From Escherichia phage vB_EcoP-101114UKE3, in the sequence record NC_070982.1: a stretch of 64,000 nucleotides of DNA; one strand, 5' to 3'. A program made the position numbers and the translations under genes. Below are positions 14,149-64,000 of this stretch, one piece after another. How positions within the stretch are numbered: the stretch's first letter is position 1; the number at the start of each line of letters is the position of its first letter. A model generated the notes under the pieces. The model saw nothing but the letters and a program-made list of their open reading frames with translations, searched no databases and was not told the DNA's origin.

Positions 14149-14159
14149 ATAATGTATAT
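14149..14159 (+). promoter_or_regulatory. phage-specific promoter-like motif TAATGTATATA
   Basis: motif 36 nt upstream of ATG 14195; near-identical copies upstream of three minus-strand genes. Confidence 0.5.
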
Positions 14160-22470: not shown

Positions 22471-23211
22471 TTAGAAAGGGCTGTCATCTTCTTCAAAGGT
22501 AGACTGCGGCTCTTCGTTAATAGTAGGGATACTTGGAGTAGCATCTTTCTGTTCAGTATCAGAAGCTTTAGTAACTTCACGACCAGCCAGAGGGATGTTC
22601 TTAGCATCATTAGCTTGGGTCAGAAGATTACGTTGGAATGGGAAGATTGCTTGATAAGCAGCCAAGTTAGCATCAGTCTCAGCATACGGTTCGAAGAAGA
22701 TCAACTCACTACGAGGGGCACCTACAGCATCACGATATTTGGTAGGGATTGGAGTGATACTCTTAATGGAGTTTTTCTTCTCACCAGCTTTGTTTACATA
22801 GGAATTAACCAGAATGTTAACAGGCTGACCTAGCAGCATATCTTTAAACCAACCCAAATCACCTTTCAGTGCTTGAACACTTGGGTCGATCATTTTAATC
22901 AGATTCAGAATACCAGAGTTCTTAGCTCGTGGGTTTACGTCGAAAGTTTTAAACTGGCAAGCAGGACGAGGGTCCAGAGGTTTGCCTTCATTATCAGTCC
23001 CTGTTGCATCTACGCCAATCAGCTCAAAAGCTAAGTCCATACGGAAAGCTGGGTTCTTAGGGGTAACTGCTTTGGTCTTAGGGTCAATCCAAGGGTCACG
23101 ATTGTGAACACCTAAACCTACAACACGAACAATACGTGCTTCGTACTCACCATCAGGGATTACATCGTAGTTGGATTTACGGGATACAGACAGTTCAGGG
23201 ATCATAGACAT
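22471..23211 (-). CDS. ssDNA-binding protein candidate
   Basis: acidic C-terminal tail ending EEDDSPF, as in SSB and T7 gp2.5. Confidence 0.5.
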   Translation of the reverse strand: MSMIPELSVSRKSNYDVIPDGEYEARIVRVVGLGVHNRDPWIDPKTKAVTPKNPAFRMDLAFELIGVDATGTDNEGKPLDPRPACQFKTFDVNPRAKNSGILNLIKMIDPSVQALKGDLGWFKDMLLGQPVNILVNSYVNKAGEKKNSIKSITPIPTKYRDAVGAPRSELIFFEPYAETDANLAAYQAIFPFQRNLLTQANDAKNIPLAGREVTKASDTEQKDATPSIPTINEEPQSTFEEDDSPF

Positions 23212-23268
23212 ATTAATATTTCCTTATATAAATTTAAGATTGTTGCTCTCTTTGAGCGGTTTGTATAC

Positions 23269-23279
23269 TATATACATTA
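23269..23279 (-). promoter_or_regulatory. promoter-like motif TAATGTATATA (minus)
   Basis: about 60 nt upstream of SSB start. Confidence 0.45.
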
Positions 23280-23341
23280 CACTTATACAGATAAGGTTCT
23301 ATTATACTATAACCTTTTTGGTAGTAGATAATGACAAGTAG

Positions 23342-23352
23342 TAATGTATATA
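23342..23352 (+). promoter_or_regulatory. promoter-like motif TAATGTATATA (plus, divergent)
   Basis: exact motif on plus strand in 410-bp ORF-free region; no downstream plus-strand gene. Confidence 0.35.
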
Positions 23353-23625
23353 TGGTATAGCTAGTAAAGCTATTGCAGGCTTGTATATTGGGCAATCATT
23401 GTAACCCTTGCAAGTACCGAAGGGCAGGAGACACCTGCGAGATAAAATAGAGAATTAAGGAAATCCTTGATTTAGGTTGTAGGGACTCCTAGGGACTTTG
23501 ATTCTCTATTTAAAAGAATATTAATTACTTACTACCTAAATAATTAACTAACTTACTTAAACCAAACTCAAGAATAATAGATAAAAAGATTATTCCTAAG
23601 AAAGCTAAAAAGTAAAGGATATAAG

Positions 23626-49716: not shown

Positions 49717-50079
49717 TTACTCTGCTACCAAAAGGCTCAGAGATTTGCGAATGTAGTCAATACTACGGAAGTTTCGATAGTTCTCTTGGAAGCGCATTTT
49801 TTCAAACTCTGCTTCCTGAAGCTCTACCTCTGCTGCTTTATATCCTGATAAAGCTAAACTTACCACATCCTGAGGTAAGGTATTACGACGGCGAATAAGA
49901 TATTTATTCGCTTTTAGTTTACCTTGTGCACGAGCCATTTTGGCCTTTGCCGCCTTGATACCATGAGAAATCCAAAGCAGTTGCTGTTTCAGATCTTCCT
50001 CATCCATACCACCTAAATCATTTGCTACTTTATGCAGCGTAGACAGGTTCACATGGCCTTTAATGGGGCGTAGGTTCAT
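49717..50079 (-). CDS. hypothetical protein
   Basis: 120-aa basic helical ORF. Confidence 0.4.
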   Translation of the reverse strand: MNLRPIKGHVNLSTLHKVANDLGGMDEEDLKQQLLWISHGIKAAKAKMARAQGKLKANKYLIRRRNTLPQDVVSLALSGYKAAEVELQEAEFEKMRFQENYRNFRSIDYIRKSLSLLVAE

Positions 50080-50243
50080 AACTTCTCCTGTTTGTCACAT
50101 TGATTGGTTAGCCAGTTGTAAGACCCACTGTTGTTCTTGCTTAACTCGCAAGATGCAAAAGAGTACATCCTGACAAACCCCACAGTGGCTAAGCAAATAA
50201 AGATTGCTGCCAATAAGAATTTAGCTTTCAACTTATTATCCAT
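50076..50243 (-). CDS. small membrane/secreted protein (55 aa), not in ORF track
   Basis: MDNKLKAKFLLAAIFICLATVGFV...; GAGG SD; stop overlaps next ATG. Confidence 0.35.
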   Translation of the reverse strand: MDNKLKAKFLLAAIFICLATVGFVRMYSFASCELSKNNSGSYNWLTNQCDKQEKL

Positions 50244-50446
50244 ACAACCTCTTCTTTGAGCTTAAAAAAGGACTCTCCTAAGAGAGCCAAGCTTTAAGGC
50301 CAATTAAATAGATATCACCCAATATCTGTGGATAACCTGCTCTTAAAATATTCTATCCGACGGATGTTCGAGGATTATTCCTCTCCCTAGCATCGGCCCC
50401 ATACGGGAAAGATTAAATTAAGTTTAGGTTAGTTGAGCCAGAATAG

Positions 50447-50489
50447 CTCACATAGCCCTCTGATACTCACAAGGGCTATAGATGTTACT
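50447..50489 (-). repeat. conserved hairpin element, copy A
   Basis: CACATAGCCCTCTGATACTCACAAGGGCTATAG directly after stop codon; 8-bp stem, 12-nt loop; near-identical copy at 56084-56130. Confidence 0.5.
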
Positions 50490-50733
50490 CTGTGGCTCCG
50501 TCGAATCGGAGGATTGCTGCTGGAACAGGGTATGCTTCCAGATCTTCATCCAGTCGGTATAGATGCCCTGTACTTAAATTTACAGCTGTTACTGGCTTAG
50601 AGTGGCCTCCAGCCTGTATGGAAGGAACTCTGATAAAGAACTCTTCTGGATATTCAACAGAGTGGAACACACTTCCTGAATAAAGATCTTTTATTTTAGA
50701 AGTTTGTTTAGGAGTTTTATCAGCAATTTTCAT
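50485..50733 (-). CDS. small protein, five-member paralog family
   Basis: L-x-x-G-[DS]-x-F ... V-x-L-S-x-G pattern shared with 51854, 52124, 54939, 56130 ORFs. Confidence 0.45.
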   Translation of the reverse strand: MKIADKTPKQTSKIKDLYSGSVFHSVEYPEEFFIRVPSIQAGGHSKPVTAVNLSTGHLYRLDEDLEAYPVPAAILRFDGATE

Positions 50734-50966
50734 TACAGACCTTTCTTAGCACGATCTTTGGCAGTTTTGCCAGTGCGGATACGATGGGAAACATTAACCA
50801 GCTCGCCACCTTCGACGATGGTTACGCTTTTGTTTTTCGCAATATCAAACACAGTTTTCTCTGTGCCGCCCAGACGAATCTGTTTAGGCTCACTGTGGGT
50901 CTGAGTTGATTTAGACTGGAACTGGAACGGCTGACGGATGGCATCAATTGCGCTAACTTTAGACAT
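50733..50966 (-). CDS. small hypothetical protein
   Basis: 77-aa ORF. Confidence 0.4.
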   Translation of the reverse strand: MSKVSAIDAIRQPFQFQSKSTQTHSEPKQIRLGGTEKTVFDIAKNKSVTIVEGGELVNVSHRIRTGKTAKDRAKKGL

Positions 50967-50994
50967 GTTTTTATTACCTTACATTAAAGAGAGA

Positions 50995-51408
50995 TTAAAC
51001 AACGAATTGGAACGCTTCGTATCCAAACTTGTATAAGAAATCGTGTTTGAACTTTACTACACGACCACGATCGCGGAAAGCTTTCAGGCGACTGCTGAAC
51101 CCAACCATTGGCTCAGGGTCAATAGGGCTACGAATCTTCATAGCTACAGAGTGCAGCTTGAAGCGTTTACCAGTGCTACAGGCCATCATCACATACTCCA
51201 TACGAGTAGTCCAGATGTTGAGCACCATGCTTGTTTTCTCCGCTGACCAACCAGTCTTGCGGGCGATTTCTTTATGGACATTAAGCTCCAAAGGAAGAGG
51301 GAATTGCTTGTTGAATGAAGCCGGATATAGCTTGACCAGAAGGTCAATGTTTTCTTTATACGTTAAGTAAGCCAATTTCTTGCTTACGTTAGGGAATTTC
51401 CCAGACAT
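50995..51408 (-). CDS. ProQ/FinO-domain-like RNA-binding protein
   Basis: KENIDLLVKLYPASF..PLPLELNVHKEIARKTGWSAEKTSMVLNIWTTRMEYV...GKRFKLHS aligns by pattern to E. coli ProQ N-terminal domain. Confidence 0.45.
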   Translation of the reverse strand: MSGKFPNVSKKLAYLTYKENIDLLVKLYPASFNKQFPLPLELNVHKEIARKTGWSAEKTSMVLNIWTTRMEYVMMACSTGKRFKLHSVAMKIRSPIDPEPMVGFSSRLKAFRDRGRVVKFKHDFLYKFGYEAFQFVV

Positions 51409-51606
51409 TTTTGAAGCTCCAAAACAGCGCCGAAAAGAGAGGCGTCATAGTAGCTAAAAGGAGGAGAGAAGAGGGCTTATTTACTTGCCTTTTTCTGTCC
51501 GTTAATGTACCAGATAACTGAACCGTCAGGCTGTCGTTGACCGAAGCCTTTCAAGTTAACCATTTCTTCTTCAGAGTAGGCACGTTTTCTCACTGATTTT
51601 CTCCTG

Positions 51607-51864
51607 TCAGTAGAAGGTGTGTGTAGAGTCGTCGTTCATAGATAACCAAACGAAGAAGACAATCACACAGAAAGCAATAATACCGAGAGTTGCAAGGATT
51701 ATAGTGTTAGCTAATGTGATATCTAACACGCTTTGCAGATATATAAAGAACTGTACGACACCACATACCATCAGCACAACCCCAACGACAATGAGGAGCC
51801 AATATGTGCAGAGAAGGACTGCATCTAATAGTGATACATACTTTGGATGATCTTTATGTCTCAC
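51607..51864 (-). CDS. small membrane protein
   Basis: two or three TM segments. Confidence 0.4.
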   Translation of the reverse strand: MRHKDHPKYVSLLDAVLLCTYWLLIVVGVVLMVCGVVQFFIYLQSVLDITLANTIILATLGIIAFCVIVFFVWLSMNDDSTHTFY

Positions 51865-52120
51865 TGATCTTTTCCACTAAATCCAGAGTTGCTGATTCAA
51901 ATACAACACCAACTACCATATTAGGTGCCATATTACGAACGTATCCGCTCTGCATAGACACGGCCCGAGAGTATTCAGAACCGTTAGAACTTTTGTTTAC
52001 CTTCATGTAAAGGGTTTGCTCTTTATCTTCTTTCAGAGTAAAGAAAGAGCCGGGAAGAAGCCTCTGAACAGTCAGAGGGATATCTGCAACATGAGTCTTA
52101 TTGATAGTAAGAACTGTCAT
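51854..52120 (-). CDS. small protein, five-member paralog family
   Basis: LLPGSFFTLKEDKEQTLYMKV. Confidence 0.45.
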   Translation of the reverse strand: MTVLTINKTHVADIPLTVQRLLPGSFFTLKEDKEQTLYMKVNKSSNGSEYSRAVSMQSGYVRNMAPNMVVGVVFESATLDLVEKISET

Positions 52121-52123
52121 TGC

Positions 52124-52378
52124 TTATTCCTTAATAGTTGCTTCAGCTTTAATAGGAATAACAGCAACATCTTTACGAGGTGCTGTCGCTCGACCTGTGT
52201 TAAGGCAGGCTACAAGTCTATGCTCGTCCGCACCCTTGATGCAGAGTCGAGTTGAGAACTCAGTAGACAGCAAGATGTACAAATCATCATCTTCACTGTT
52301 AGGGTACATGAAGCAATCCCCAAGTCGTAAAGCACTGAGAGGTATTGCACTCTTACCTGCTGGTTTATTAACTTTCAT
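52124..52378 (-). CDS. small protein, five-member paralog family
   Basis: LRLGDCFMYPNSEDDDLYILLS. Confidence 0.45.
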   Translation of the reverse strand: MKVNKPAGKSAIPLSALRLGDCFMYPNSEDDDLYILLSTEFSTRLCIKGADEHRLVACLNTGRATAPRKDVAVIPIKAEATIKE

Positions 52379-52654
52379 TTTACCACCTTTAGTTATGGAC
52401 CAATTTATGAGAGAACTCTCGGAAGAATGCTTTCATAAATAGGGGGAGGGGACGAATCCTCCCATATCCTATTAATTAATATTGCATGTAAGATCTAACA
52501 ATTCGATGCTGTAGTGGATAGCGTAAAACGCTTACCGGCATTAAACCCAGCCCATGAGGGGCTTATGTGAATAAAATGCTCAACATTGAGCGGTTAGTTG
52601 ATAGGAGATCTGAAGTCCTATCTCAAAGGACTCTCGTAAGAATCCTTCACGATA

Positions 52655-52909
52655 TCACTTAGTAAGAAAGATTATCAACTTATCCGCTACCCAGCCTATT
52701 AACATAAGGACAGGTAAGAAGAAGATAAAGATCAGCATAAAAGGCCAGAAGAATATCACCGTCCAAATAGAAAGTATATCAGGCTGACCACTCCATGAGC
52801 AGTGGAAGAAGTTGTAGAGTGTATTGGTTTTGAAGCACCATTTAACTACAATGGCTGCTAACCACCAACCAATAACATAAATCAGGAGGACATACGCTGC
52901 TGTAACCAT
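52655..52909 (-). CDS. small membrane protein
   Basis: multiple TM segments. Confidence 0.4.
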   Translation of the reverse strand: MVTAAYVLLIYVIGWWLAAIVVKWCFKTNTLYNFFHCSWSGQPDILSIWTVIFFWPFMLIFIFFLPVLMLIGWVADKLIIFLTK

Positions 52910-53136
52910 TCACCGTTCCATTGATAGTTGCGAGTTACCACGTTTCCGTGGATAAGGAAGTGCTGGCGGCGAAGGATATCTTTAACGTTGTAGTAGGCAG
53001 CGTTACCGAGATGACCTTCTTTAATAAGCCAACGAAGATTACGGATATCAACCAACAGCATTTTTACTTGCTGTTGGCATGAAGTTTGAGCTGCTGTTTC
53101 AAGTAGAGCTTTCGTATCAGAATAATGACCGGACAT
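52882..53136 (-). CDS. hypothetical protein
   Basis: 84-aa ORF. Confidence 0.35.
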   Translation of the reverse strand: MSGHYSDTKALLETAAQTSCQQQVKMLLVDIRNLRWLIKEGHLGNAAYYNVKDILRRQHFLIHGNVVTRNYQWNGEWLQQRMSS

Positions 53137-53137
53137 A

Positions 53138-53464
53138 TCACCACTCCTTACCCTTTGTTGTTACAGAGCCACTACACTGTACACCACGGGAGATAAAGTC
53201 ATAACGCGACCAATCACCTTGTGTCTCCATATCACGCCCTACATAAGCCTTCTCATCAACAGCACCGCCGTTGGAACAAGAAGCACCAGCATAACGCATA
53301 TCAATTTCACCACTAGGAATCTTCTCCCCGCTGTGCCAACGGGAAACACAGACACCTTCTACCGATAATGCACACCATCCATCAGGACGATGCTGTACGC
53401 AGCCTGTAAGAGCTACACAGGCGATAAAGATACAGGTTAAGGTAATTACACCACCCCAGCTCAT
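53138..53464 (-). CDS. secreted protein/lipoprotein candidate
   Basis: signal peptide with LTGC lipobox-like motif. Confidence 0.5.
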   Translation of the reverse strand: MSWGGVITLTCIFIACVALTGCVQHRPDGWCALSVEGVCVSRWHSGEKIPSGEIDMRYAGASCSNGGAVDEKAYVGRDMETQGDWSRYDFISRGVQCSGSVTTKGKEW

Positions 53465-53601
53465 AATCCCTCCTGAAGCGCCTTACGGCGGCTATCTCGC
53501 CAAGCCATCCATAGGTAGGTTTTAAGTTCTTCTCTTTCTTCTTCGCTGAACAAAGGAGAAGTAAAGATATCATCGAACCACTCATTAAACTCAGGGGTCA
53601 T
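53461..53601 (-). CDS. small acidic protein (46 aa), replaces track ORF 53382..53585
   Basis: AGGAGG SD 4 nt before ATG 53601; TGA overlaps ATG of downstream gene. Confidence 0.35.
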   Translation of the reverse strand: MTPEFNEWFDDIFTSPLFSEEEREELKTYLWMAWRDSRRKALQEGL

Positions 53602-53740
53602 AAACCCTCCTATTTGATTTGGTGGACTATCTGGAATCGAACCAGAAGCTCACTAAGAAAGCAATTCCCACTGTTATAAAAGCACTTGCCTCAACAGGGA
53701 TACACTAACTTTGGTGCCGCACCCATACTAGCCCTAAATG

Positions 53741-53816
53741 TGGTGCGCCCTACAGGACTCGAACCTGTAACCAATAGCTTAGAAGGCTACTGCTCTATCC
53801 GTTGAGCTAAGAGCGC
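53741..53816 (-). tRNA. tRNA-Arg(UCU): tRNA-Arg (anticodon UCU), CCA encoded
   Basis: hand-folded cloverleaf: 7-bp acceptor, D arm GCTC/GAGC, anticodon loop CTTCTAA, T arm ACAGG-TTCGAGT-CCTGT, discriminator A plus CCA. Confidence 0.85.
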
Positions 53817-53824
53817 GGAATTGT

Positions 53825-54034
53825 TTAACTGAAGATACGCAAGGCCACATCATGACCAATATGACCGGGAACTTTATGCTGCTCTATTTTCAAGCAGCGC
53901 TTACAGATACGAGATACACGAGACTCTTTTCTCTCTACTGGAGTGTCTTTAGCGTGAGTGATGTGTAGGTTTTCAGTGATCACCCACTCGTGTTTACATC
54001 CAGAATCTTCGGGCTTTTTCTTACGAAAGAACAT
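53825..54034 (-). CDS. small zinc-ribbon protein (triplet member)
   Basis: start MFFRKKK; CKHEW ... CKRC. Confidence 0.4.
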   Translation of the reverse strand: MFFRKKKPEDSGCKHEWVITENLHITHAKDTPVERKESRVSRICKRCLKIEQHKVPGHIGHDVALRIFS

Positions 54035-54042
54035 AACACCTC

Positions 54043-54207
54043 TTAGATCAGATCTGTTTTCTTGTGCAGACCACACACTTTACAGCGAGAGTAGATACGC
54101 AACCCTTGTCGCTCTCTGTCAGTAAGTTTATTTGTGATCGTCAGTTCATAAGTATGAAGATCTTCCCACTCATGGAAATGAAATAGACGTTTGAACCATT
54201 TGATCAT
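54043..54207 (-). CDS. small zinc-ribbon protein (triplet member), not in ORF track
   Basis: 54 aa MIKWFKRLFHFHEW...CKVCG; near-duplicate N-terminus of 54217..54402. Confidence 0.4.
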   Translation of the reverse strand: MIKWFKRLFHFHEWEDLHTYELTITNKLTDRERQGLRIYSRCKVCGLHKKTDLI

Positions 54208-54216
54208 AATGATTCC

Positions 54217-54402
54217 TTAGATTACATCACGATGACTAATATCACCACACACCTTACACTGAATAATGTAACGTGTGCCCTTGTCATTGTTCCCATCTGA
54301 ATCCGTATAGACCAGAGGACGGGTGTTAATAATCTTCCAATCATGACAATGGAAGACACGCTTTAGCCACTTAATCATATTAAGCACACGCCGGTAATTC
54401 AA
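54217..54402 (-). CDS. small zinc-ribbon protein (triplet member)
   Basis: MIKWLKRVFHCHDW...CKVCG. Confidence 0.4.
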   Translation of the reverse strand: MNYRRVLNMIKWLKRVFHCHDWKIINTRPLVYTDSDGNNDKGTRYIIQCKVCGDISHRDVI

Positions 54403-54637
54403 TTAACTGAGGAGTACGACAAGGGCCATCCTCATACACACCTACCAGTGTTGGCATGTAAGGCCCAGCGCACTGGTATTCATCGAACAGTTCATTGTAA
54501 GTAGGCTTCCACTTCCAAGCCCACACATAACCCATTCGATCAATGGCAATGTAACGAGTGTTCAGAGGAACCTGCATCATCACATCACCAACTGCTATTA
54601 CTTTCGTAATAACTGCTGCTCGGAAGTTTGTCTTCAT
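54380..54637 (-). CDS. hypothetical protein
   Basis: 85-aa ORF. Confidence 0.35.
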   Translation of the reverse strand: MKTNFRAAVITKVIAVGDVMMQVPLNTRYIAIDRMGYVWAWKWKPTYNELFDEYQCAGPYMPTLVGVYEDGPCRTPQLIELPACA

Positions 54638-54942
54638 GACTTTGCAGCCTCCATCATTTTATTCATTTTAGCCACACCTTTACGGATAAGAGGCATAAAT
54701 TCATCAGCCAGTTCAGTGGATAAAAGTTTAAGCCCGCCTGATTTAATACCGTTCACCGCCTTCTCAACTTCATCCGACAGCAATGTCATTGTTAACCACG
54801 GGGATTTTATTACCACAGTAAAGCCCGGTTCATACCGCGAGTGACTGTAGGTGAACTCTAAATGAGTAACACCGGGCATCTTAGACATTTGAGCACGGAT
54901 ATCTACATTAGGGTTGCAGCGAGTTGAAGATGAAATTGTCAT
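54634..54942 (-). CDS. hypothetical protein
   Basis: 102-aa ORF. Confidence 0.35.
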   Translation of the reverse strand: MTISSSTRCNPNVDIRAQMSKMPGVTHLEFTYSHSRYEPGFTVVIKSPWLTMTLLSDEVEKAVNGIKSGGLKLLSTELADEFMPLIRKGVAKMNKMMEAAKS

Positions 54943-55190
54943 GGCGCTTTAATCTCAATCTGAACGTTGACGACGAATACAGTATGGTTTGCACTGTACA
55001 CTGAAGTGCCTATGATTGGCTTATCATCACTGAGGATTTCAACAGCGTGCTCAAGGTTAATCTTCAGATGAAGACGCCCTGATTCCATGAAGAAATCACC
55101 AGCACGTATCTCACCGAACTTAGCTGGCACACCGATAGAGGGTATCAGTATGTCAGTGCGACCTTTACGGTCAAATAAACGATTGAACAT
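54939..55190 (-). CDS. small protein, five-member paralog family
   Basis: IRAGDFFMESGRLHLKIN. Confidence 0.45.
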   Translation of the reverse strand: MFNRLFDRKGRTDILIPSIGVPAKFGEIRAGDFFMESGRLHLKINLEHAVEILSDDKPIIGTSVYSANHTVFVVNVQIEIKAP

Positions 55191-55199
55191 ATCACCCCC

Positions 55200-55409
55200 T
55201 TATGTAATATCAACCTCAAACCAACAGGTAAGAGCTTTTTCATTGTTGCGTTTTGGCTCAAAGGATTTAACAACCGATAACACTCGGCGCTGTTCTCCAT
55301 CAAACCAGATAGTTTCATCTTTTTCAGGGAGTAGGTTGTGTGCAGCACAAACAATCTCACCTAGTACAACCTGTCTGCCATCTTGCTTACGAACTAAACG
55401 AATGTTCAT
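55200..55409 (-). CDS. small hypothetical protein
   Basis: start MNIRLV after terminator hairpin. Confidence 0.35.
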   Translation of the reverse strand: MNIRLVRKQDGRQVVLGEIVCAAHNLLPEKDETIWFDGEQRRVLSVVKSFEPKRNNEKALTCWFEVDIT

Positions 55410-55452
55410 AACAACCTCTCTTGTTAGTTTAAGTAAGAGTTGTCCCTTAATT

Positions 55453-55483
55453 AAAACAACAAAGGCCACCCCTAAGGGCAGCC
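55453..55483 (-). terminator. intrinsic terminator
   Basis: minus-strand ggcugccc-uuag-ggguggcc with two G-U pairs (C-A on plus strand), then U-rich run. Confidence 0.5.
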
Positions 55484-55489
55484 TCTTAT

Positions 55490-55693
55490 TTAAGCGCAAG
55501 CACTACGCAGTTTGTTATTCAAGAAGCGATCTTCTGCATTATACAGGAATGCATAGAACAACTCTTTTGCTACATCCCGATCGCAATTGAGACATTTAGA
55601 GATCTGTAACAACAAACCATCACGACTATTAGGATGGTCAATTATCGCAAGACGAATAATCTCACGAATACCAATGTCATGCTCAGCCGCCAT
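55490..55693 (-). CDS. small hypothetical protein
   Basis: 67-aa ORF. Confidence 0.35.
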   Translation of the reverse strand: MAAEHDIGIREIIRLAIIDHPNSRDGLLLQISKCLNCDRDVAKELFYAFLYNAEDRFLNNKLRSACA

Positions 55694-56083
55694 AGAACCA
55701 ATCACCCTGACGTTTACGAATGTTAGTTGTCAGACGAAGCATGGCAGACTCAATCTTCAGAGCACCATTTGCTACTGCATCCATACGTTCAGGACGGTTC
55801 ATACGTTTGGTTGTCTTTTTCATAATGTTCTCTCTTTATTGATGGAGGCAGGATTGCCAGTTAATATAAAGGGAAGCCCTACACGTTAAGACTTCCGCTT
55901 GTACAAACTGTCGAGAACTCTCTACCCCTAGATTGTTCTCTATCCCAAACCGATACATACCCCTACATATCGGAAAGCTGTTCGAAAATTAACAGGTTTT
56001 AGTCTATCACCGGATGTTTGAGACAAGTCTCGCCCTAGCGGTGAGCCATATGGCGTTGAGATTATAGTTAATTGAGGAACACC

Positions 56084-56130
56084 CTCACATAGCCCTCTGA
56101 TAAACACAAGGGCTATAAGTCGATGTTACT
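56084..56130 (-). repeat. conserved hairpin element, copy B
   Basis: CACATAGCCCTCTGATAAACACAAGGGCTATAAG directly after stop of 56130..56360. Confidence 0.5.
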
Positions 56131-56360
56131 TAACCATTAATATGAGTTACTTGAACATCAGGTACAGGGATAACTTCATGGTCTTCCTGTAATTGGAACA
56201 GTGTCCCCTGACTAAGACCAACCACACGATGCATATCGTTAAGTCTAGTGTCTGTCTTTAGGTAGACATTTTCAGAGTTAGTTGGTAAACGGAACACATC
56301 GCCCGGACGTAACTCACTGAGCTTTTTAGTAACAACTACAGAGAAGAGATTAATTTTCAT
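56130..56360 (-). CDS. small protein, five-member paralog family
   Basis: LRPGDVFRLPTNSENVYLKT ... VVGLSQGTLFQLQED. Confidence 0.45.
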   Translation of the reverse strand: MKINLFSVVVTKKLSELRPGDVFRLPTNSENVYLKTDTRLNDMHRVVGLSQGTLFQLQEDHEVIPVPDVQVTHING

Positions 56361-56533
56361 TTGATTAACACCAAATCAGTACGACGTTCGAAGGAAGGGG
56401 AGGATTCACCATTCCACTGAACAAGATAACAGAGAACACCATCAATCGTTGTTCTCCGACGAATAACACCTGTAACAGTTCCACCAACAAGACGAACGGT
56501 GTCGCCAACGGTAAATTTAACCTTTGAGCGCAT
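56357..56533 (-). CDS. small hypothetical protein
   Basis: start MRSKVKF with AGGAG SD. Confidence 0.35.
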   Translation of the reverse strand: MRSKVKFTVGDTVRLVGGTVTGVIRRRTTIDGVLCYLVQWNGESSPSFERRTDLVLIK

Positions 56534-56822
56534 CTCCTGTTTCCTCATTCTGGCGTTTAATTTCTTCAGTGAGTTGCTTATTAAGATCTTGAATACGCTT
56601 AATCTCCCAACCCAAAGAAGCCAAACGATCGTTACGTGCTTCGATTTGTTCCTGCATTTTAAGTAATTTGGAACGAACATCAGCATTAAAAACTTCTTCT
56701 TGCTTAAGAAGGAACTCGTAACGACGCTTCCAGCTTGCTGATTTATTTCTTAAAATAATAAACCCTAGAGTAGAAACCGTTACAGTGAGTACGAAAAGGA
56801 ACTTATAAACCTCTAAAGACAT
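56517..56822 (-). CDS. membrane-anchored coiled-coil protein
   Basis: N-terminal TM then helical E/K-rich region. Confidence 0.4.
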   Translation of the reverse strand: MSLEVYKFLFVLTVTVSTLGFIILRNKSASWKRRYEFLLKQEEVFNADVRSKLLKMQEQIEARNDRLASLGWEIKRIQDLNKQLTEEIKRQNEETGDALKG

Positions 56823-57023
56823 ATCTTTATCCTCTTAAAGTAAGATATTATAAGAAATATTATTTAGAATTTATTATTTCTAAACTTAATTCCTATCAAT
56901 AATTTTCAGAGGTCTATATACAGTCATTACCTCTGGTCCCAAATCACTTCCACTTTTTACAGAGAAAATCATAAGTGTGTGATTTATAAGGAAATTTAGT
57001 TTGTCAATATTGGCACTTATGAA

Positions 57024-57410
57024 TCAGTCACGGGAGCTGTTATTGAACACTAAATCACCACAATACATCGGATTGGTATACCACTTTGGCACCCCTTCGC
57101 TCTTACTCTGAAAGTATGTACCGCTGTACAAAGGCACATAACCTTTCTTCAGTGCACGCCTTGCAAGCCGCTCGCTCTCTCTGATTGATTTCTTTATCAG
57201 AGGGTTATCATCACGAATTAGCTTTACATAACGCTTAAAAGGTTTCTCCTTCTTTAATAGGACGGGTATCCACTCGAACTGGTTTCGTTGATTTATAACC
57301 TGCTCGGCAGTCAGTTTTCGTTGTGACATTCTGTTTATTACGGTATCCGCTACTAATGCTTTGCAAGCGGTTGGCTGATTCCCTGCCTCATAATAAATAG
57401 TCAATGTCAA
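57024..57410 (-). CDS. SleB/CwlJ-like cell-wall hydrolase domain protein
   Basis: IYYEAGNQPTACKALVADTVINR matches IYAEARGEP..AV..V.NR core motif. Confidence 0.5.
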   Translation of the reverse strand: MTLTIYYEAGNQPTACKALVADTVINRMSQRKLTAEQVINQRNQFEWIPVLLKKEKPFKRYVKLIRDDNPLIKKSIRESERLARRALKKGYVPLYSGTYFQSKSEGVPKWYTNPMYCGDLVFNNSSRD

Positions 57411-63239: not shown

Positions 63240-63520
63240 TATTACTACTCCTGATAGATGAAAGATTGTTTGTCGTGTGTAGTTACTTAGGCTGATCAAC
63301 CTTCACTACTCACTATCACCGCTAACTACTTTACATCACTGCTTCATTAACGATAATTCAAACTACGATTGCAACTATATATTAAAGGAAAAACATGTCA
63401 ACCACTTATTTTCAAACTCTTTCATAACTCACTGAATATAAAAGGAATTTAATTTACTAAACTTTCTTACTCAGAGATACAGCTTACCAAATAGATGTTA
63501 TTTTATAACACTTACAGAAC

Positions 63521-63615
63521 GGGTAGCAGACCAACGGGATAGATAGATGGGTAAGACGTGCCGCATAGGTTAGCCAATGGGTAAGAAGCCTAACGAGGAA
63601 GGGGAAACGGGTAGG
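63521..63615. repeat. cluster of five GGGTA(A/G)G-type short repeats
   Basis: GGGTAG, GGGATAG, GGGTAAG, GGGTAAG, GGGTAGG at 13-30 bp spacing in ORF-free DNA. Confidence 0.45.
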
Positions 63616-63688
63616 ATATAATGTAAGTTAGTTACAGGTAACAGGTCAGACCATGCGGTAATAAATTACCAGTCAAATTCCTACTCAT

Positions 63689-63760
63689 CAAAAGAAAAAA
63701 GAAACGCTGAAAAAAGAAAAGAATAAAAGAAAGAATAAAAATAATAACTAAAGTAAACAA
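63689..63760. repeat. 70-bp purine (A/G) tract on plus strand
   Basis: aaaagaaaaaagaaacgctgaaaaaagaaaagaataaaagaaagaataaaaataataa. Confidence 0.5.
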
Positions 63761-63848
63761 CTACCAGTCTAATGATACATACATCAATAATCCACTCATG
63801 AAACATTAACATAGGTTATTACTATTAAACTTGGGGTAGTGTGAGGAT

Positions 63849-63857
63849 TGTTATAAT
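63849..63857 (+). promoter_or_regulatory. extended -10 element TGtTATAAT (rightward)
   Basis: perfect TGnTATAAT; weak -35; target lies beyond window. Confidence 0.3.
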
Positions 63858-64000
63858 TGCATGGTGTTACCATTACTAACCTCACTATGATAGCCCTTAC
63901 TATTAGCCCTCTTATTATCACCCCTTAACAGTACATCAGAGTCTAGCCTTTCATCCTTCCTTAACATGAGTAGAAGAAATACGGGTGGGATATTACTGGT

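Follow-up and report, generated by a model that had tools for sequence, protein, structure and literature searches.

Near the right genome end of Escherichia phage vB_EcoP-101114UKE3 (NC_070982.1), of which a stretch of 64,000 nucleotides was analyzed (hereafter the window, with position 1 as its first letter), an array of short repeats occupies positions 63519-63616. The array is real, highly constrained and specific to both genome end and strand, and among related phages its motif type changes in concert with that of further copies located in the direct terminal repeat (DTR). It is best explained as one of three A[CT]GGG[GT]A arrays, all in the same orientation, that flank and partly fill the DTR and that would, by analogy, be the counterpart of the CCTAAAG arrays of phage T7; among these, it is the inner one, in right-unique DNA. 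Our leading but still tentative reading of its role is that of a T7-like, end-specific multi-site protein-binding platform for concatemer maturation and packaging.

A constrained motif array in the non-coding right end

Over its last 1.2 kb, the window is 100% identical to Escherichia phage vB_EcoP-101114BS3 (MZ234015), and this stretch matches Kuravirus and Suseptimavirus coliphages (phiEco32-like, Gordonclarkvirinae) at 84-92% identity. A more sensitive search retrieved 73 records, phiEco32 among them. The window is oriented as the phiEco32 record, with the motif cluster in non-coding DNA at the genome's right end. Sequence past the window end was taken from positions 50000-57200 of MZ234015 (locus L003), which adds 3 kb; position x of this locus is position x + 59799 of the window, and coordinates above 64000 are extended coordinates obtained in this way. 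The window itself holds only the first array and one DTR copy of the motif, all other copies being read from L003. Conservation figures refer to an alignment of 11 phages, which are close relatives (82-92% identity over the region).

Five copies of a GGGTA(A/G)G-like motif within 95 bp had been claimed in an earlier note made from the letters of the window, and five are indeed found at 63521-63615, all on the plus strand, three of them exact and two degenerate. Exact GGGTARG occurs at 63549, 63579 and 63609 with a spacing of exactly 30 bp, as part of A(C/T)GGGTA(A/G)G at 63547, 63577 and 63607; with its flanks, the unit reads A[CT]GGGTA[AG]GA. These copies are ATGGGTAAGA at 63547..63556 (+), the same sequence 30 bp further on at 63577..63586 (+) and, after another 30 bp, ACGGGTAGGA at 63607..63616 (+). 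The two weaker copies, GGGTAGC at 63521 and GGGATAG at 63536, belong to motifs starting at 63519 and 63534. The former, copy 1 (ACGGGTAGCA, 63519..63528, +), stands 123 bp from the −35 element of a leftward sigma-70 early promoter and is the sole array copy whose context also aligns to phiEco32. The latter, degenerate copy (ACGGGATAGA, 63534..63543, +) reads ACGGCAACGA instead in TH43 and TH34. Taken as a whole, the array lies about 112-235 bp upstream of the early promoter, and its last copy is found 338 bp before the start of the DTR.

The number of GGGTARG sites in the whole window is ordinary, with 7 observed and 8.9 expected. For four GGGTA within 95 bp, the Poisson probability is 4e-7, or about 3e-4 after correction for scanning, and in Markov-1 simulations of the window (n = 300) the maximum was 3 GGGTA per 95 bp, four never being reached. 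The clustering is therefore beyond chance. Moreover, comparison with the genome ends of related phages, a check suggested in the earlier note, revealed strong conservation of the cluster in all 11 phages: the array block at 63519-63636 has a mean pairwise identity of 96.8%, with 106 of its 118 columns invariant. It is the most constrained piece of the region, above the early promoter (94%), the DTR (90%) and the flanks (62-66%).

Several other identities of the array were considered. The cluster is not a CRISPR array, in agreement with the earlier note, as only about 10 bp are common to each 30-bp period, no repeat/spacer structure is present and CRISPR repeats measure 23-55 bp. A structured RNA was rejected as well: a search of Rfam with permissive filters returned no relevant family (one chance match fell elsewhere), and folding of 63504-63690 gave no RNA-structure signal on either strand, which fold no better than shuffled sequences (z = −0.32 for the plus strand and +1.20 for the minus strand). 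For the plus-strand mini-open reading frames (ORFs) that start with ATGGGTAAG (8 and 14 codons), no ribosome-binding site was seen on reading the sequence.

Position of the direct terminal repeat

The start of the DTR was placed at 63945 by homology to phiEco32, YF01, NC-B, SU7, HC-25922 and 4E8. The records of the first five begin at one homologous base, AGCCTTTC, and in 4E8 the annotated DTR starts at the base homologous to 63945. An exact match between prefix and suffix extends over 193 bp in phiEco32 and YF01 and over 250 bp in NC-B, and the repeats end at ...GAG(A/C)GGCT, equivalent to extended position 64193. As reported in PMC9965538, the phiEco32 repeat was found experimentally and that of YF01 was derived from full-length nanopore reads. 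Because the relatives' records start, or their annotated repeats begin, at the homologous base and the repeats end at ...GAG(A/C)GGCT, we infer that the DTR of this phage spans 63945-64193 (249 bp). Its first 56 bp (AGCCTTTCATCC..., 63945..64000, +), assigned by homology, hold ACGGGTG at 63981 (offset +36), and the remainder lies beyond the window. The length of the DTR differs by clade, with 249-250 bp in the clade of the window and 193 bp in that of phiEco32. Kuravirus-like phages package T7-style from concatemers and carry short DTRs; for this phage group, a 193-bp repeat with a conserved stretch at its positions 130-170 and internal repeats of the CCCTTTTTT type have been described (PMC9965538; PMC4281155).

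A 275-bp repeat_region annotated in PAS59 (OQ921332) maps to 63735-64011 and would put the DTR boundary at the purine-rich tract that lies beyond the array. This boundary was rejected, as six records agree on 63945; PAS59 is the sole discordant record and probably reflects an artefact of assembly, trimming or annotation. Two further records deserve a remark. The published 53-bp DTR of SU7 (MZ342906) looks truncated, the left end carrying the full homologue of about 250 bp while the right end stops 53 bp in. In NC-B (MK310183), the right-hand repeat is annotated as 194 bp long, shorter than the 250 bp given for the left-hand one, even though the two ends are identical over 250 bp.

Motif copies in and beyond the terminal repeat

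Eleven of the 50 plus-strand GGGTA sites in 67 kb fall within 63500-64520, where about 0.8 are expected, as compared to 1 of 33 on the minus strand, and the enrichment of the motif at the genome end amounts to about 14-fold. In an unbiased k-mer test, in which a 1.3-kb end segment was compared with the rest of the genome (65.7 kb for this phage), GGGTA, ATGGGT and ATGGGTA came out on top; GGGTA is found 12 times in the end segment vs 38 times in the remainder, and ATGGGTA 6 vs 5 times. Within the DTR of the window clade, copies are located at offsets +36 (ACGGGTG, 63981), +65, +93 and +108. Past the DTR, a left-unique array made up of units of about 15 bp (ATGGGTnnGCCTTTA) occupies extended positions 64405-64540 (L003 4606-4740). 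Its copy number varies among relatives, with large indels in the alignment.

The region 63521-63760, singled out by the earlier note as typical of packaging sites, terminal-repeat boundaries or replication origins, sits 185-424 bp inside the right DTR boundary. It does belong to the genome-end region, with a motif that is strand-specific, end-enriched and present in and past the DTR; it is not itself the boundary of the repeat.

A similar organization emerged for phiEco32, in which the k-mer test yielded ACGGGGA; all 6 copies lie in the 1.3-kb end segment, the other 76 kb being devoid of the motif. These copies occur in equivalent places, that is in a right-unique array with 29-bp spacing and at DTR offsets +36, +65, +79 and +92. 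In nine phages from four clades, 112-130 bp separate the −35 element of the early promoter from the beginning of the right-unique array, which has a spacing of 27-30 bp and lies 254-369 bp from the DTR. Whether the repeat is of the 193-bp or the 249-bp type, copies are found at +36 and +65. In each phage, the right-unique array and the DTR copies use the same motif variant, which is ATGGGTA/ACGGGTA in the window clade and ACGGGGA in phiEco32, YF01, SGF2, Bas89 and 4E8. The motif thus switches in concert while position, spacing and orientation are kept, a pattern to be expected of sites that co-evolve with a single sequence-specific protein. Since the geometry stays while the motif changes in concert, neither chance nor decaying duplication offers a likely account of the pattern.

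No description of A[CT]GGG[GT]A arrays was found in the accessible literature on this phage group, although the primary phiEco32 papers may hold an earlier mention. A search of IMG/VR with an 18-mer conserved in the DTR returned 3 loci only, two of which are phiEco32 itself. Separately, GGGTAGGGTATTTATGGGTAGGG at L003 4241-4263 (extended 64040-64062), inside the DTR, matches the canonical pattern of a G-quadruplex-forming sequence, with four G3 runs and loops of 2, 7 and 2 nucleotides. It is built from two adjacent motif copies of the terminal repeat of the window clade.

A possible end-specific binding platform

If the array acts as a platform for maturation and packaging, its 3-5 copies, about 29-30 bp or some three helical turns apart, would present their sites on one face of the helix. 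Several subunits of one sequence-specific, phage-encoded protein could then bind to this array, to the copies at DTR offsets +36 and +65 and to the array of 15-bp units past the DTR. That copies recur at constant offsets within the DTR, and on the opposite flank as well, suggests that a single nucleoprotein complex might form across the junction. The most plausible binder would be the small terminase subunit (TerS) or its partner, and binding would flag the concatemer junction as the place where the DNA is cut site-specifically, at 63945 and 64193, and where the repeat is duplicated. Lying between array and cut site, the A-rich tract melts easily and may aid bending or unwinding.

A number of points weigh against this proposal. 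Both the candidate binding protein and the packaging role are proposals drawn from sequence. To our knowledge, the role of the T7 arrays on which the analogy draws has never been firmly established. The distance from the array to the early promoter is tight (112-130 bp), whereas that to the DTR cut varies (254-369 bp), so that a promoter-linked role would fit at least as well. Moreover, more than one factor or function may be encoded in the array block, because all 118 bp, and not the motif copies alone, are nearly invariant among close relatives. As for the candidate binder, gp3 of YF01 was assigned as small terminase by profile similarity to TerS of PaP3 (PMC9965538). The putative TerS of the present phage (L003 5731-6198), a homologue of phi32_6, matched no annotated PHROG or PDB sequence, which leaves its identity as a terminase unconfirmed, and it is 91% identical between the ATGGGTA and ACGGGGA clades and therefore uninformative on co-evolution.

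A bolder version of the proposal would take the A[CT]GGG[GT]A arrays as a family-wide, co-evolving 'end code', in which one phage protein reads the right-unique, DTR and left-unique copies and the clade motif (ATGGGTA vs ACGGGGA) sets the specificity of packaging or maturation, perhaps coupled in the window clade to a phage-sigma promoter firing toward the junction. We regard this as conceivable but rather doubtful. Were it true, the long-standing question of what purpose T7-type short-repeat arrays serve at DTR ends could be addressed in a tractable system. Phages with short exact DTRs are common, and cis-acting end signals are poorly understood outside T7. In practical terms, the arrays could be used to predict the true termini of circularly permuted or mis-trimmed Kuravirus-like records, to design swaps of packaging specificity and to engineer therapeutic-candidate coliphages without destroying essential non-coding signals.

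Parallels with T7 and other phage systems

Phage T7 (NC_001604) served as a positive control for the k-mer test. Under identical settings, CCTAAAG was recovered with 13 copies in the 1.16-kb end segment vs 6 elsewhere, in one orientation. The sites are located in the 160-bp terminal repeat (17, 41 and 60), in the left flank (175-332) and in the right flank (39671, 39700 and degenerate copies). These arrays are the SRL and SRR described by Dunn and Studier (1983). At the T7 left end, the order of elements is repeat, array, phage promoter phiOL (405) and inward early promoters A1-A3 (498-750), while the right end of the present phage shows, from the outside in, repeat, spacer, A-rich tract, promoter-like element, array and inward early promoter. 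On account of this matching order, the two architectures are closely parallel.

The likeness to the T7/T3 arrays extends to a short (about 7 bp), single-orientation motif that is concentrated at the genome ends, to copies within a short exact terminal repeat and on both unique flanks, to the placement of one array between the repeat and the inward early E. coli promoters of the presumed leading end, and to concatemer packaging with a short DTR, that of the present isolate being assigned by homology. On the other hand, the motifs are unrelated (A[CT]GGG[GT]A here, CCTAAAG in T7), and SRL has a spacing of about 13 bp, as opposed to about 29-30 bp in the right-unique array. SRL also starts 15 bp after the repeat, whereas here a gap of 250-370 bp intervenes that includes the A-rich tract and a hypervariable spacer. 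The immediate adjacency of array and repeat that is typical of T7 was accordingly not found, neither in this phage (338 bp before the DTR) nor in the nine phages compared (254-369 bp). Furthermore, T7 belongs to the Autographiviridae, while the present phage is an unrelated member of the Gordonclarkvirinae and relies on host RNA polymerase plus a phage sigma factor. The arrays described here extend a known kind of element, T7-type short-repeat arrays at DTR ends, to an unrelated podophage family, and they are not a new kind of biology.

Short direct repeats and bendable A-rich DNA near a terminase cut are also features of SPP1 pacL/pacR and of the R-sites of lambda cosB, and in this respect they resemble the present region. 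The SPP1 and lambda sites lie in or beside the terS gene or the cos cut. Here, unlike in those systems, the putative terS is about 1.6 kb off across the junction, and the genome has exact short DTRs rather than headful or cos ends. A location in or beside terS or the cut, of the pac/cosB type, was not found: the nearest cut (63945) is 185-424 bp away and the putative terS about 1.6 kb beyond the DTR.

Like iteron-type and T7-type origins, the region combines direct repeats, spaced roughly in phase with the helix, with a promoter-like element and an AT-rich tract close by. It differs from them in its shorter repeats, in the lack of an adjacent initiator gene, in a promoter-like element that is not family-wide and in the presence of the motif in and past the DTR. 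Neither iterons of 17-22 bp nor an adjacent initiator were found; the unit of about 10 bp recurs in 30-bp periods, and the neighbours encode small early hypothetical proteins.

A possible role linked to the early promoter

Sequence by itself does not separate a packaging role from one in replication or transcription. Because the distance between array and promoter is constant while that between array and DTR is variable, a promoter-linked or DNA-entry role is the main rival of the packaging platform. The promoter concerned (TTGACA-16-TATAGT, 63374..63401, −) agrees with 11 of 12 consensus positions, drives transcription of the early genes on the minus strand and delimits the non-coding end region on its inner side. 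It has a mean pairwise identity of 94% among the 11 relatives and is annotated at the homologous place in SU7 and 4E8.

Under this explanation, the motif copies would be upstream sites, at about −110 to −235 from the sole sigma-70 early promoter of the right end, at which a protein of the phage or the host would modulate early transcription or act on the leading DNA end shortly after ejection, for instance as a roadblock or in end protection. It presumes that the right end, like the left end of T7, is the first to enter the cell; its early promoter points inward and stands about 800 bp from the physical end. Besides the 112-130 bp distance to the −35 element maintained in nine phages of four clades, it is favoured by the fact that array and promoter are the two most conserved non-coding segments, and the distances of the promoter from the DTR start (about 545 bp) and from the end (about 800 bp) are comparable to those of T7 A1-A3 (498-750). 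However, a regulator of the early promoter would have no need of the motif copies that occupy fixed positions within the DTR or lie beyond it, by late-region genes. In addition, the constant distance may only mirror a lack of indel-prone sequence between promoter and array. All in all, we consider this role unlikely.

A second promoter-like sequence is found in the same place. The leftward early promoter stands back-to-back with the rightward, sigma-70-like TTTACA-16-GATAAT (10 of 12 positions) at 63330-63357 (+). This rightward sequence is unchanged in the four relatives with the same upstream sequence and would read through the array toward the genome end. No sigma-70 promoters other than these two, and no terminators, were found in the region.

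A phage-sigma promoter-like element next to the array

Directly after the last motif copy, the candidate promoter TATAATGTAAG (63617..63627, +) combines a perfect TATAAT with the full AATGTA core of phage-sigma (gp36) promoters and points toward the genome end. The core is contained in TAATGTAAG at 63619, overlapping the TATAAT and oriented toward the DTR. In phiEco32, the middle and late promoters consist of a single element, tAATGTAtA, in which AATGTA is centred at −11.5 (PMC8948821; PMC12276001; PMC4281155). In the window, perfect TAATGTATATA was found at 14150 (+), 23269 (−) and 23342 (+), and variants occur at the positions expected for P58 (29830, −) and P68 (34112, −, TAATGTAGC). As the P68 equivalent illustrates, gp36 promoters of this genome can differ behind TAATGTA and still be functional. 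The element at 63617-63627 is invariant in the 11 relatives and present in Bas89 and 4E8, and it is absent in phiEco32, YF01 and SGF2. Between the element and the DTR, there is no plus-strand ORF that it could serve. The AATGTA core alone is weak evidence, because TAATGTA occurs 19 times in the window. The element could be a T7 phiOR-like promoter for a secondary origin or for transcription-coupled maturation, a possibility for which the case is thin; both readings are ranked below those in which the array binds protein.

As part of a replication origin of the T7 secondary type, the promoter at 63617 would prime replication or open the DNA by the A-rich tract, with the motifs acting in an iteron-like manner. 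Apart from the invariance of the full core and the tolerance of gp36 promoters for changes behind it, such a function would agree with the location of the A-rich tract (63690), which begins 63 bp downstream of the end of the element (63627) and ranks among the top three 70-bp windows for AT content, and with direct repeats beside an AT-rich region being the classical origin layout. We nevertheless judge it improbable. The TAATGTA element is missing from phiEco32, YF01 and SGF2 although these phages keep the arrays and the A-rich tract, its 19 occurrences in the window reduce its significance, the repeats of 7-10 bp are not iterons of 17-22 bp, no initiator gene is adjacent and the copies inside and past the DTR are left unexplained. 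A better candidate is available at 23210-23590.

This latter region holds two divergent, perfect TAATGTATATA sites (23269, −, and 23342, +) between 70-bp windows that rank among the most AT-rich of the sequence (23210 and 23517) and, judged from its sequence, would be the better candidate for a T7-style replication origin than the array region.

Transcription-coupled maturation appears very improbable. Host RNA polymerase with the phage sigma factor would start at 63617-63627, read into the DTR on concatemers and recruit the terminase, with the array as an accessory, similar to T7 phiOR and its junction pause. The element does face the DTR, and no plus-strand ORF of at least 30 amino acids is found before the window end. 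In T7, pausing of the RNA polymerase at the concatemer junction initiates maturation (PMC3276506), and phiOR precedes the right terminal repeat by about 550 bp. Against these parallels stand the lack of conservation of the element in the phiEco32 clade and the absence of any terminator-like or structured pause signal among those searched for, including in the conserved 3' part of the DTR. In addition, the published phiEco32 maps, as cited in PMC8948821, list six gp36 promoters, none of them at the right end.

Finally, it is hardly credible that the array has no dedicated function and was left behind by local duplications in an end prone to recombination, its conservation reflecting only close kinship: the 11 aligned phages are close relatives (82-92%) and the left-end array varies in copy number, but the array reaches 97% identity vs 62-66% for the flanks in the same alignment, and divergent clades keep its position, spacing and orientation while the motif changes.

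Remaining features of the non-coding end

Between the array and the DTR, four further segments were distinguished. The first is a palindrome, GGTAATAAATTACC (63657..63670), which is present in an imperfect form, GGTAATAATATACC, in phiEco32. It is followed by the A-rich, purine-rich tract (63690..63760, +), with 72% A, 84.5% purine and 81% AT. The earlier note had described an uninterrupted 70-bp A/G run following the motifs, a description that fails on both counts. The tract measures 71 bp and is broken by 11 pyrimidine interruptions into purine runs of which the three longest span 15, 15 and 11 bp, and it begins only 74 bp past the last motif copy. Even so, it surpasses every other 70-bp window of the 64 kb in both purine and A content. 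Its sequence and length are not conserved (66% mean pairwise identity and many indels), whereas its composition and a CGCTGAAAAAGAAA core are, the core being found in phiEco32 as well. No strong static bend is predicted for the tract, because its A-runs are irregularly spaced and not about 10.5 bp apart. Beyond it, a second conserved non-coding block (ACCAGTCTAATGATACATACATCAATAATCCACTCATG..., 63764..63830) with a mean pairwise identity of 85% is followed, directly before the terminal repeat, by the hypervariable spacer (63831..63944; 62%).

The region had been called ORF-free in the earlier note, which is essentially correct: the only two ORFs, of 42-43 amino acids, are of low complexity and lie on the T-rich minus strand. 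For one of them, at 63632-63760 (−), MZ234015 carries an annotation as hypothetical protein. Indels of 1 nt and more separate the relatives here, so that the frame is not conserved, and both ORFs were rejected as small genes on grounds of low complexity and these indels. In MZ234015, the hypothetical proteins at 63632-63760 (−) and at L003 4052-4441, the latter opposite a conserved phi32_1-like gene, look over-annotated. The most AT-rich 70-bp window of the whole sequence is located elsewhere, at 56837-56906 (87% AT).

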